Part shown: positions 6,403 through 8,616 of the stretch, piece after piece
Layout of the letters: each line of letters opens with the position of its first letter
Numbering within the stretch: position 1 is the first letter of the stretch
Virus record (IMG/VR): IMGVR_UViG_2778261269_000003
Location: 1-32,904 of that record
Origin: a virus
Taxonomy: Duplodnaviria; Heunggongvirae; Uroviricota; Caudoviricetes
DNA: 32,904 nt
Strand: one strand, 5' to 3'
Position numbers and translations under genes: made by a program
Notes under the pieces: generated by a model
What the model saw: only the letters and a program-made list of their open reading frames with translations
Told to the model about the DNA's origin: nothing
Databases searched by the model: none

Positions 6403-6860
6403 GCCGATTAACCGCAATCTTCATTGCTGTTGTCGTCTGCGTCATCGTGTCGCTTGGATGGGCTGTTAATCACTACCGCCACAACGCCATCACCTACAAA
6501 GACCAGCGCGACAAAGCCACCAAGAATCTCAGCCTGGCTAACGCCACCATCAAAGATATGCAGGTACGCCAGCGAGATGTCGCTGCACTGGATGCCAAAT
6601 ACACCGGAGAACTGGCTGATGCCAAGGCTACTATCGATCAGCTTGAGCGCGATGTTGCTTCTGGCAAGCGTCGGTTGCAGCTCAACGCCAGATGTCCCGC
6701 GAGCGGAGAGACCGGCACCGGCGGCATGGGCGATGCTTCCGGCCCCCGACTTACTGAATCCGCTGAACGGGATTATTTCACCCTCAGAGAGCGGATCATC
6801 ACAGTAACGAAGCAGGTAGGCTATCTGCAGGGATACATCAGAGAGCAATGCCTCAAATAA
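6399..6860 (+). CDS. Rz: i-spanin Rz
   Basis: 153 aa with N-terminal TM segment and coiled-coil periplasmic domain, recalled as lambda Rz; ATGA overlap with R. Confidence 0.88.
6619..6807 (+). CDS. Rz1: o-spanin Rz1 (lipoprotein embedded in +1 frame of Rz)
   Basis: ATG 6619 preceded by GGAGA; translation [20 protein letters not shown]... has a lipobox and Pro-rich tail ending NGIISPSE as in lambda Rz1. Confidence 0.72.
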
Positions 6861-6861
6861 C

Positions 6862-6888
6862 AGCCTCGCAATAGCGGGGCTTTTTTTA
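6862..6888 (+). terminator. Rho-independent terminator after lysis cassette
   Basis: 8-bp stem AGCCTCGC/GCGGGGCT (one G-U), loop AATA, followed by seven T. Confidence 0.6.
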
Positions 6889-6910
6889 TGCGCATCGCAG
6901 CGCGTTACAA

Positions 6911-6996
6911 ACCGAGAGCCTATAGGAAGCGAGCCTGAGATAAATCGTTATCTCTCGGGGCGACTTATCTATGCGAACAGGCTCGCAACTTATAGG
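6911..6996. repeat. Nested inverted-repeat (dyad symmetry) cluster
   Basis: GAGATAA-ATCG-TTATCTC (6937-6954); GCGAGCCTG (6929-6937) vs CAGGCTCGC (6978-6986); CCGAGAG (6912-6918) vs CTCTCGG (6952-6958); extra TTATCT half-site at 6965-6970. Confidence 0.5.
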
Positions 6997-7002
6997 TGAA
7001 TT

Positions 7003-7434
7003 ATGAAGAAGTTGATGACTACTGCTTTTGTATTCGTGCTGGTCTGGGGGCTGTTTGGCCTGCTGGTCTACGCGACTTTACAGGGCGACCACTCATTGAT
7101 GAGCATCGTCGTAGCGGCTTACTGGGCGATTATAGTTCTTGCCTGCTTCATCTCGCCTCTGTTTCTTGTGGCTGTGCTCATGGCAGGGAAAGAGAGTGAC
7201 CCAATGGAGCGTGCCAAGCTGTTAATCCCACTGAAGGACTATTACAAACGCAAGGGGGCGACTAGGAAGTTCATTAGCCTTGCGACCATGGCGGCAATTT
7301 TCGTCATGTTGTCTTATTCCGGCTGGGTGTTCACATCGTTGTTTTACATCTTGGCGTGTGGCTTTGTCACGGTGCTTAATTCGGTCGGCAGAGACAAGTT
7401 CGAAGAACTGACAGGCCACATCGTTAAGTTGTGA
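7003..7434 (+). CDS. Hypothetical integral membrane protein (about 4 predicted TM segments), moron candidate
   Basis: 143 aa, strongly hydrophobic segments; occupies the position where lambda has bor. Confidence 0.5.
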   Translation: MKKLMTTAFVFVLVWGLFGLLVYATLQGDHSLMSIVVAAYWAIIVLACFISPLFLVAVLMAGKESDPMERAKLLIPLKDYYKRKGATRKFISLATMAAIFVMLSYSGWVFTSLFYILACGFVTVLNSVGRDKFEELTGHIVKL

Positions 7435-7585
7435 CTCATTACAGAAGCTCTTCACTGAGGGGCTTCGATAATGATCTGTGTAACCCCGCAAGGATGGTGA
7501 TCACATCTTGCTGACGGGTAAGCCGTAAGTGGCTAAGCACATCTGAGAAGCTGAGCGAACGCTGCGACACGGCTAAGAGGTAATC

Positions 7586-7804
7586 ATGCCAGGCATCTAC
7601 CAAATCACCCTCACGACCCAAACAGGCGAAACCTTCACCGGAAAGATGACTGGGAGTCAGCCTGAGTTGGTTAATGGCTTTGTGCCGCTGGCGACCGAGA
7701 CTGGCGAGTGGTTGTATTTCGCTCCCGCCGATGTGAAGCGCGTGGAGTTCACGCCAGTACCGGTAGAGAAGACCGAACAGCCAGCAGACGAAACAACGGA
7801 GTAA
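7586..7804 (+). CDS. Small hypothetical protein
   Basis: 72 aa ORF with AAGAGG RBS 7 nt before ATG; acidic C-terminus. Confidence 0.45.
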   Translation: MPGIYQITLTTQTGETFTGKMTGSQPELVNGFVPLATETGEWLYFAPADVKRVEFTPVPVEKTEQPADETTE

Positions 7805-7965: not shown

Positions 7966-8616
7966 ATGAGCAAGCCGGACTGGGAGGCCATCGAGACGGC
8001 GTACCGTGCCGGAGTGATGTCCCTCCGAGAAATAGCATCACAACACGGTATCAGCGAAGGCGCTATCCGTAAGCGTGCCAAGCGTGACGACTGGTCACGT
8101 GACCTGAATGCGAAGGTGAAAGAACGCGCTGACGATCTGGTACGCAAAGCTGAGGTACGCAAACAGGTACGCAGTGAAGTAACTTTTAACGAACGCGTAC
8201 TCATCGAGGCTACTGCTGAGGTAATCGCCAATGTCCGTATGGAGCATCGCGGCGACATTAAGCGAGCCCGGCAGATAACGAACGCCCTGTTTGATGAGTT
8301 GGGGGCAGAGTGCGCAGACGTGTCCGCACTGGAGAAGCTCGGAGAGTTGATGTTCGACCCCGACGACAAAGGTCAGGACAAGCTCAACGATCTGTATCAC
8401 AAAATAATCAGCCTGCCTTCCCGAGTTAAATCCATGAAAGACCTGAGCGACAGTCTCAAGACACTGATCGGCCTCGAACGTGAGGCTTATAGCATCGAGA
8501 ACAAGGCTGAAACGAAAGAGGTCACGCATAACGTCATGCTGGTACCAACCAGTGACAGCGTGGATGACTGGGAAGCGGCAGCACAGAAACAACAGGATGG
8601 GGTGCTCGATGGATGA
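7966..8616 (+). CDS. Terminase small subunit (HTH-containing)
   Basis: 216 aa with N-terminal HTH-like segment (MSLREIASQHGISEGAIRKRAKRDDW); directly upstream of and ATGA-coupled to terminase large subunit. Confidence 0.68.
   Translation: MSKPDWEAIETAYRAGVMSLREIASQHGISEGAIRKRAKRDDWSRDLNAKVKERADDLVRKAEVRKQVRSEVTFNERVLIEATAEVIANVRMEHRGDIKRARQITNALFDELGAECADVSALEKLGELMFDPDDKGQDKLNDLYHKIISLPSRVKSMKDLSDSLKTLIGLEREAYSIENKAETKEVTHNVMLVPTSDSVDDWEAAAQKQQDGVLDG

Follow-up and report, generated by a model that had tools for sequence, protein, structure and literature searches.

Several cis-acting RNA systems offer points of comparison for the element described here. Leaders that sequester a Shine-Dalgarno (SD) sequence and contain competing pairings are exemplified by the kinetic trap of the phage MS2 maturation-gene leader and by the alternative structures of the lambda cIII mRNA, and pseudoknot/hairpin equilibria at or near the ribosome-binding site are found in the translational operators of E. 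coli rpsO (S15), the alpha operon (S4) and phage T4 gene 32, which are autoregulated by the encoded protein. The RNase III sites of phages T7 and lambda have the shape of an interrupted hairpin with a bulge, the put sites of HK022 and HK639 lie just downstream of early promoters, where they act on RNA polymerase and replace N, and ribozymes of the hepatitis delta virus (HDV) type are nested double pseudoknots, marked by a G·U wobble at the first P1 pair, a 3-bp P3 whose 7–8-nt L3 forms P1.1, and a catalytic C in J4/2. Here, we analyze an element in a 32,904-nt stretch of virus DNA (Caudoviricetes, IMG/VR record IMGVR_UViG_2778261269_000003; hereafter "the window"), in which the + (late-operon sense) strand of positions 6888–6999 appears to encode a structured RNA leader, which we name the rha leader.

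The predicted RNA consists of a small GC-rich hairpin (P0), a 6-nt spacer, and a long interrupted hairpin formed by P1, P2, a one-sided bulge and P3, the apical loop of which pairs with the 5′ flank to form a pseudoknot (PK; Table 1). PK comprises 7 bp in the window, using the seven bases directly 5′ of P1, and 5–8 bp across the family. Most relatives carry in addition a mini-hairpin, P4 (e.g., AGGUGGCGACCU), between the UUAU linker and the PK 3′ strand, which has been lost in the lineage of the window (six close variants, each followed by the same membrane-protein gene). The alignments further show conservation of unpaired bases in the bulge (GUG..), after P3 (UUA) and after PK (GG).

Table 1. 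Coordinates of the rha leader and of the features that flank it in the window.
Feature	Position	Strand	Sequence and remarks
Intrinsic terminator after Rz	6862–6888	+	stem-loop AGCCTCGC-AATA-GCGGGGCT and T run; from terminator scan
P0, small GC hairpin	6888–6893 / 6900–6905	+	AUGCGC / GCGCGU, loop AUCGCA
Spacer	6906–6911	+	
PK 5′ strand	6912–6918	+	CCGAGAG; partner 6952–6958
P1 5′ strand	6919–6926	+	CCUAUAGG, contains anti-SD CC; partner 6989–6996
P2 5′ strand	6929–6937	+	GCGAGCCUG; partner 6978–6986
P3 5′ strand	6938–6947	+	AGAUAAAUCG; partner 6961–6970
Linker	6948–6951	+	UUAU; site of P4 in most relatives
PK 3′ strand (apical loop)	6952–6958	+	CUCUCGG
Linker	6959–6960	+	GG
P3 3′ strand	6961–6970	+	CGACUUAUCU
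One-sided bulge, 3′ side only	6971–6977	+	AUGCGAA; conserved 6–7 nt, family consensus GUG(N)NRA
P2 3′ strand	6978–6986	+	CAGGCUCGC
P1 3′ strand	6989–6996	+	CUUAUAGG; last bases AGG start the SD
SD	6994–6999	+	AGGUGA; ATG at 7003
Downstream gene	7003–7434	+	143-aa multipass membrane protein; rha at the equivalent position in most relatives

The rha leader shares with the MS2 and cIII leaders that it is a cis-acting phage 5′ leader in which a complementary strand further upstream base-pairs with the ribosome-binding site and an adjacent pairing is predicted to form earlier. However, it has no sequence or structural homology to them, its competing pairing is a loop-to-flank pseudoknot, and it is internal to an antiterminated operon, is preceded by a terminator, and serves many unrelated genes. 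A predicted pseudoknot/hairpin equilibrium likewise recalls the translational operators, but the proteins encoded downstream of the rha leader differ and are unrelated, so that autoregulation by the gene product, or a shared autoregulator, is unlikely. As with the RNase III hairpins of T7 and lambda, the hairpin is long and irregular, lies between cistrons of a phage polycistronic RNA and has an asymmetric internal loop or bulge, but the rha leader also possesses conserved P0, PK and P4 and keeps a constant position relative to the SD and AUG. Like the put RNAs, it is a structured cis-acting RNA of lambdoid phages, and HK639 itself also carries a copy; a put-type antitermination RNA was nevertheless rejected, as the rha leader is a late-operon element, found after Rz or else between Q and the holin gene, and abuts a start codon. 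It occurs in Q-encoding phages, such as that of the window, phi80 and RothC. Finally, the order of strands (A-B-hairpin-A′-B′) is that of HDV-like ribozymes, as are the 0-nt linkers at the A/B and hairpin/A′ junctions, but helix B of the rha leader has ~29 bp, and hairpin P4 is dispensable and absent from the lineage of the window. We rejected an HDV-like ribozyme on the grounds that there is no G·U at the first PK pair (C-G or another Watson–Crick pair in the major types), that P4, with 4–5 bp and a tetraloop, cannot form P1.1, that there is no counterpart of P3/L3, and that Rfam gives no hit.

The element is a new, widespread and apparently undescribed RNA family of a generally known kind, the structured cis-regulatory leader. 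Neither the searchable literature nor Rfam 15 holds a description of it, with Henthorn and Friedman (1995), which might note a stem-loop before rha, lying outside that search. At gathering thresholds, Rfam 15 returned 0 hits in the whole window, and searches at permissive E-values (window 6800–7100, and the HK639 locus L001 at 1400–1750) gave only weak hits far below the gathering scores, mostly on the upstream terminator, together with mir-627 on the HK639 hairpin (19 bits, compared to a gathering score of 86). Within the part of the CUS-3 record considered here, a bsq feature is annotated upstream of the holin gene only, with none over the element. Such features embody the idea of lambdoid "boundary sequences", short conserved stretches at the junctions of exchangeable modules, and variable modules flank the element.

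Structure and Compensatory Evolution of the rha Leader

The preliminary description of this locus had drawn attention to nested dyad symmetry at 6911–6996, and had offered an RNA structure as one of its explanations. All of the inverted repeats that it named are present at 6912–6996: GAGATAA (6937–6943) is complementary to TTATCTC (6948–6954), GCGAGCCTG (6929–6937) to CAGGCTCGC (6978–6986), and CCGAGAG (6912–6918) to CTCTCGG (6952–6958), and both the additional TTATCT half-site (6965–6970) and the two TATAGG motifs (6921–6926 and 6991–6996) are found as well. A repeat finder merged the TATAGG motifs and the GCGAGCCTG arms into a 19-nt interrupted inverted repeat (6919–6937/6978–6996) that is 84% complementary, and detected a further pair of 10-nt arms (6938–6947/6961–6970). 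The RNA folding that the preliminary description had proposed as a check gives one long hairpin of −37.0 kcal mol–1 for the + strand of 6905–7005 (z −4.93), with none of 200 dinucleotide shuffles being as good (−21.4 ± 3.2 kcal mol–1), and −34.6 kcal mol–1 for the − strand (z −4.73). The dyad symmetry is real and non-random, and the element begins earlier than had been described, with the GC hairpin at 6888–6905. The innermost repeat, GAGATAA/TTATCTC, is present in the window as claimed, but it is not a conserved pairing: in relatives, GAGAUAA pairs with the distal UUAUCU to form P3, and the proximal UUAUCUC is made up of the UUAU linker and the start of the PK 3′ strand, such that the loss of P4, by placing UUAU beside CUC, generated this repeat in one lineage.

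To compare homologues, we used two sets. A pattern built on two conserved blocks identified 136 copies with 83 distinct cores in the fetched loci, from viral contigs and Enterobacterales genomes (Enterobacter, Pantoea, Rahnella, Providencia and Yersinia), and the 83 cores were aligned with plain MAFFT (alignment A1). A covariance model derived from A1 yielded 103 copies, among which are the diverged variants of P22, ES18, 1717 and Erwinia and those of second copies, and the 98 distinct rows form the structure-aligned set A3. When the pattern was scanned against genome contigs, chance matches in unrelated phyla predominated, with only 13 Enterobacterales-type loci being real.

In A1, 85.9% of the proposed pairs are canonical, compared to 81.2% in column shuffles, with a covariation score of 0.165 vs 0.092 (0/500 shuffles as high), and pairing falls to 40–54% when the 3′ partners are slid by 1–3 columns. 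The corresponding values for A3 are 88.8% of cells paired, 80.1% after shuffling and 37–47% in the slid controls, with a covariation score of 0.242 vs 0.092. Double-sided changes occur in 30 of the 34 nested pairs of A3, against 16.1 ± 2.0 in shuffled columns (0/500), and in 9 of the 10 pairs of P3. An independent RNAalifold run on A3 recovered P1–P3, with 20 of 23 pairs compensated. P2 also covaries in copies found via BLAST or the covariance model, being GGCCUUUG/CAAAGGUU in P22, CCGUUG/CAACGG in ES18, AAGCCUG/CAGGCUU in Erwinia and ACCCUUG/CAAGGUU in second copies, and P0, which is present in nearly all homologues, shows the compensatory variants GUGC..GCAC, GCGU..ACGC and UGCGU..ACGCA.

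As no single column register fits PK, this helix was analyzed by duplex folding. It is present in all 83 distinct sequences of A1 and, with at least 5 bp and mostly 6–8 bp, in all 98 rows of A3, among which there are 30 distinct complementary versions of its two strands (for example, CGAGAG/CUCUCG, CCCGAG/CUCGGG, CCAAGAG/CUCUUGG, CCCAGAG/CUCUGGG, UCCUGGAG/CUCCGGGG, CCACCGA/UCGGUGG, CGUCGA/UCGACG and CCGAAGA/UCUUCGG). Cognate strands form more stable duplexes than non-cognate ones (mean −11.05 vs −7.78 kcal mol–1; permutation p < 1e-4). The placement of PK is equally constrained, with a linker of 0–2 nt between its 3′ strand and that of P3 in 98/98 sequences, and of at most 2 nt between its 5′ strand and the first invariant P1 pair in 95/98. 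Covariation in about 100 distinct homologues therefore strongly supports the RNA structure that had been one option in the preliminary description, and these comparisons show a structure that has been kept by compensatory evolution.

The same observations bear on a function at the level of DNA, whether as an operator or other protein-binding palindrome, a cruciform, a pac or recombination site, or a "boundary sequence" for module exchange. The dyad symmetry itself and the position of the element as a conserved island between variable modules would both fit such a site. However, it is complementarity that is conserved and not sequence, some pairs are G-U on one strand only, and a covarying loop-to-flank pseudoknot would be meaningless in duplex DNA. 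The operator for a promoter of the membrane-protein gene that had been envisaged earlier is not supported: complementarity, including G-U and loop-to-flank pairs, is conserved rather than a fixed palindrome, and a promoter scan found no sigma-70-like promoter in 6500–7600. The suggestion of a packaging or recombination site fares no better: no positive evidence for it was obtained, the element also occurs between Q and the holin gene and between R and Rz, always directly before a start codon, and the lambda/non-lambda crossover of the window is placed inside Rz (see below). The pac sites of headful phages usually lie in the small terminase gene, which in the window starts at 7966, ~1 kb downstream. 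We consider a DNA-level site highly improbable, and if the element does supply a patch of homology for module exchange, this may be incidental rather than what has been selected.

Predicted Shine-Dalgarno Masking and a Proposed Model for Translational Control

In partition-function folds of six representatives, the GG of the SD has a probability of being unpaired of at most 0.03 in five (window, HK639, phi80, P22 and Stx2a), with a value of 0.00 for both G6995 and G6996 of the window, and the AUG is mostly open. The spacing to the start codon is likewise constrained, with the ATG lying 16–24 nt after the P2 3′ strand ACAGGCTC in 136/136 copies, and 6–13 nt after P1. The SD is thus paired in a conserved helix directly before the start codon, as is characteristic of SD-sequestering leaders. 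In the P22 type, additional bases lie between the PK 5′ strand and the main P1, but the CCU that directly follows the PK 5′ strand still pairs with the SD, and the anti-SD therefore abuts the PK 5′ strand in every type.

Folding of growing transcripts provides a possible order of events. P0 is part of the minimum free energy (MFE) structure of every transcript prefix of the window, the PK helix enters it once the PK 3′ strand has been made, and is displaced when the 3′ strands of P3, P2 and P1 appear, leaving the long hairpin at full length. In some prefix folds, the PK 3′ strand instead pairs with the invariant GCCUGAGA, an alternative that was rejected as non-conserved, since by eye it fails in the Providencia and L022 variants.

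From the structure, its conservation, its position and the predicted SD masking, we infer an effect on translation, a role for PK and the sense strand. With a probability that we put at roughly 0.6, the rha leader acts in cis on the sense late transcript as a throttle or switch of translation. In this model, the base of P1 would pair the anti-SD CC(U) with the SD GG of the next gene, leaving the AUG free, such that on the Q-antiterminated late transcript the leader would keep translation of the accessory gene low or conditional. The accessory genes in question, which encode Rha, KilA-N, ANT, T5orf172 or HNH proteins in relatives and a membrane protein in the window, are potentially harmful, and the upstream terminator would restrict access to antiterminated polymerase. 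As PK adjoins both the anti-SD strand and the P3 3′ strand (0–2 nt in each case), it may act as a competitor, that is, an early-forming alternative conformation, or as a tertiary clamp, and in either role could set whether the outermost SD-masking pairs form. Given the fixed short linkers, PK would either exclude part of the long hairpin, creating a switch, or stack coaxially on P3 in a compact fold, with PK on P3 beside P1–P2 and strain on the outermost anti-SD/SD pairs. We note that an incompatibility of PK and P3, as expected from classical H-type geometry, was considered and dropped, because a 0–2-nt linker permits coaxial stacking with P1–P2 as the connecting arm.

Several points weigh against such translational control. 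The case for it is drawn from the position of the element and from thermodynamic models, and in CUS-3 the SD is only partly masked, with a probability of being unpaired of 0.3–0.4. Exclusion and coexistence of PK with P1–P3 are both allowed. A3 was fitted to the model structure, and the lack of P2 variation in the first set was imposed by the search pattern, which fixed P2. The strand is assigned mainly from the constant orientation and distance of the element relative to the start codon and from the polarity of the late operon, the − strand folds almost as well as the + strand, and the positions at which C·A mismatches recur (see below) would be G·U there; counts of G-U and A-C are ambiguous for the strand call, with 94 G·U cells in 17 pairs on the + strand. 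Finally, P0, PK, the bulge and P4 are superfluous for a plain SD-masking hairpin, and the real function may therefore be richer, involving binding of a ligand or protein, processing, or catalysis.

One such function would be that of a processing or stability hairpin, at which RNase III (or another RNase) cuts the late polycistronic RNA and separates the upstream message from that of the accessory gene, with the cut either activating translation by freeing the SD strand or setting the half-life of the mRNA. The shape is appropriate, with a lower stem of ~20 bp that contains mismatches, an asymmetric bulge of 6–7 nt and a 10-bp upper stem (~29 bp in total), and the window itself has the ~two turns of irregular double-stranded RNA with a bulge that are expected of T7 R1.1-like RNase III substrates (P1 and P2 of ~20 bp together, a 7-nt bulge and a 10-bp P3). 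The element lies between cistrons of a long operon, beside a terminator hairpin that could shield the 3′ end of the upstream message, and conserved mismatches could tune cleavage. Specific RNase III cleavage of the leader is accordingly a prediction from shape, by analogy with known sites. However, a processing site would have no need of P0, PK or a constant distance to the start codon, and the element tracks the downstream gene rather than the upstream gene; we regard processing as unlikely, although it is the main alternative. Cleavage by RNase III could also be compatible with translational control, as its activating step.

The conserved mismatches are an observation in their own right: at A3 columns 20/114 and 27/106 (window 6923/6992 and 6930/6985), 78 and 65 of the 98 sequences, respectively, have C·A mismatches, where the window has U-A and C-G. 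These positions could be deliberate weak points, A+·C wobbles, RNase antideterminants, or a hint of an antisense function.

A second alternative attributes the tertiary features to a riboswitch-like aptamer that senses a ligand or protein, or to a small self-cleaving ribozyme, with PK, the conserved bulge and the UUA and GG linkers forming a compact core. Two side-by-side stacks of similar length are possible (PK and P3, 16–17 bp; P1 and P2, ~20 bp), linkers are 0–2 nt everywhere, unpaired bases are conserved, and the unrelated downstream genes argue for a common external signal. There is, however, no match to an Rfam riboswitch or ribozyme, the hallmarks of HDV-like ribozymes are absent, and the gene context yields no candidate ligand, which makes this the more doubtful of the RNA-level alternatives. 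A broader version, in which the leader is a pseudoknotted riboregulator of a new class that senses a host or phage factor or a small molecule, or is processed, seems to us somewhat less implausible, while still improbable. If true, such a riboregulator would gate the antirepressor-type genes rha, kilA-N and ant, as well as genes of the homing-endonuclease type, in late operons such as those of P22, phi80, HK620 and Shiga-toxin phages, and would be the cis element that ties rha expression to host physiology (the Rha/IHF phenotype of phi80 and P22).

Returning to the throttle or switch that we favor, its confirmation would mean that P22, phi80, HK620, ES18 and Stx1- and Stx2-converting phages carry an unannotated, strongly conserved regulatory RNA in their late operon, which would explain how accessory genes that may be harmful if overexpressed can sit in the most heavily transcribed operon of the phage. 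The abundant natural compensatory variation also offers a system in which to study a loop-to-flank pairing against an SD-masking helix under antiterminated transcription. In P22, rha (orf201) is a late-operon gene that is detrimental in the absence of IHF, "which regulates the rha gene" (PMC4936722), and the phi80 and ES18 records make the identical statement about their rha genes. The leader provides a mutable cis element with which to re-examine the lethality of Rha to the phage in IHF-deficient hosts. Inspection of the leader DNA by eye found no convincing IHF consensus site, no formal scan having been made.

Distribution, Downstream Genes and Genomic Placement

The family comprises at least 240 phage records. 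BLAST searches with the intergenic region returned the same element, at 70–84% identity, after the lysis genes of many phages, including HK639, CUS-3, SPN3UB, P22-like Salmonella phages, and Klebsiella and Enterobacter phages, as well as in 128 E. coli genomes. With the CUS-3 copy as query, 165 phage records were found, among them 73 Stx2a phages, HK620, and Hafnia and Erwinia phages. P22 carries a diverged copy, the type of which occurs in 75 more records (ES18, Stx2 phage 1717, BTP1, HK544 and others), and the family extends to Stx1/Stx2 phages and to Providencia and Yersinia phages or prophages. The covariance model is ready for use in prophage annotation.

About 101 of the downstream proteins fall into one single-linkage cluster, for which Rha (PF09669) is the representative and which also takes in proteins annotated as KilA-N (e.g., HK620 hkbK and the SPN3UB gene). 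The others include 10 MUG113/T5orf172 proteins, 6 membrane open reading frames (ORFs) of the type found in the window, 3 ANT/KilAC antirepressors and 1 HNH protein. In Klebsiella phage RothC and Escherichia phage CharmingMan, a copy stands between Q (with tRNAs) and an HNH homing-endonuclease gene, upstream of the holin gene, and the Stx2a phages have a second copy ahead of a 189-aa gene that has been inserted between R and Rz. The lysis cassettes upstream and the genes downstream both vary, with identical leaders being joined to different coding sequences, and in most copies a hairpin with a T run, of several unrelated sequences, is found just upstream of P0. Taking together the copies away from the Rz junction and this upstream hairpin and T run, the element behaves as a portable 5′ leader of accessory genes in the Q-dependent late operon.

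Several phages have two diverged copies of the leader per late region, each before a different accessory gene. In phi80, a high-scoring copy precedes rha and a second precedes gp49 (locus L258, 9257–9362). Stx2a phages (before the 189-aa gene) and RothC (before its HNH gene) are other examples, and the copies concerned include those at 1178–1300 of L249, 588–710 of L237, 4861–4981 of L033, 11105–11223 of L173, 8528–8632 of L125, 3238–3342 of L146 and 829–951 of L255. Such duplicates suggest a "leader plus gene" cassette for which several insertion points are available. Only one copy is present in the window.

Existing annotation overlaps the element in a number of records. The annotated start of P22 rha is a GTG at 1076, inside the element (L252, NC_002371 38500–41724; 1076–1147), and that of phi80 rha, at 7740, lies in the bulge and 3′ strand (L258, NC_021190 36000–46150; 7740–7778). 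In both cases, an in-frame ATG with an SD is found just past the element (1145 in P22 and 7776 in phi80), from which the N-terminus is Rha-like, so that the reference annotations probably over-extend rha by 23 (P22) and 12 (phi80) codons, and corrected rha start codons are suggested for both records. A "hypothetical protein" is annotated over the element in SPN3UB (L003 1491–1649, minus strand) and in several P22-like Salmonella phages; ORFs annotated across the element are probably spurious.

In the window, the gene that follows the leader has no Pfam hit, and matches PHROG 162 (phrog_162) over its full length with an E-value of 4e-12. The label given to this family, "endolysin" (lysis category), is unexpected for a small membrane protein. 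Based on this match, the product may be associated with lysis as a membrane protein, and not be a moron for lysogenic conversion.

The Mosaic Junction in Rz and Neighboring Features

The preliminary description correctly placed the dyad after the Rz terminator and before the membrane-protein gene: the Rz stop codon (6858–6860) is followed by the terminator-like hairpin and T run, the dyad region, and the ATG. Of the two hairpins, only that at 6862–6888 has the features of an intrinsic terminator; the long hairpin at 6919–6996 was rejected as such, as it is followed by GUGAAUUAUG and has no U run.

The dyad had also been taken to mark the end of the lambda-like sequence, which misses the junction by ~100–400 bp. 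From position 32 to ~6802 (O, P, nin, Q, S, R and Rz), the window is ~92.5% identical to phage lambda, and rightward of ~6465 it is ~85% identical to Enterobacter phages ENT1/BHUENT, such that the two similarity tracks overlap within Rz, at 6465–6802. These similarities place the lambda/non-lambda crossover inside the spanin gene Rz, and not in the intergenic DNA or at the dyad. As for the proposal that alignment with relatives might reveal the dyad to be a recombination breakpoint, the crossover in the window is in Rz, but the element is indeed a conserved island amid variable modules elsewhere. Within Rz, the +1 frame contains an embedded ORF (6424–6807) with a lipobox-like LLASVGC followed by a proline-rich tail, features that fit the expectation for an Rz1 o-spanin nested in Rz.

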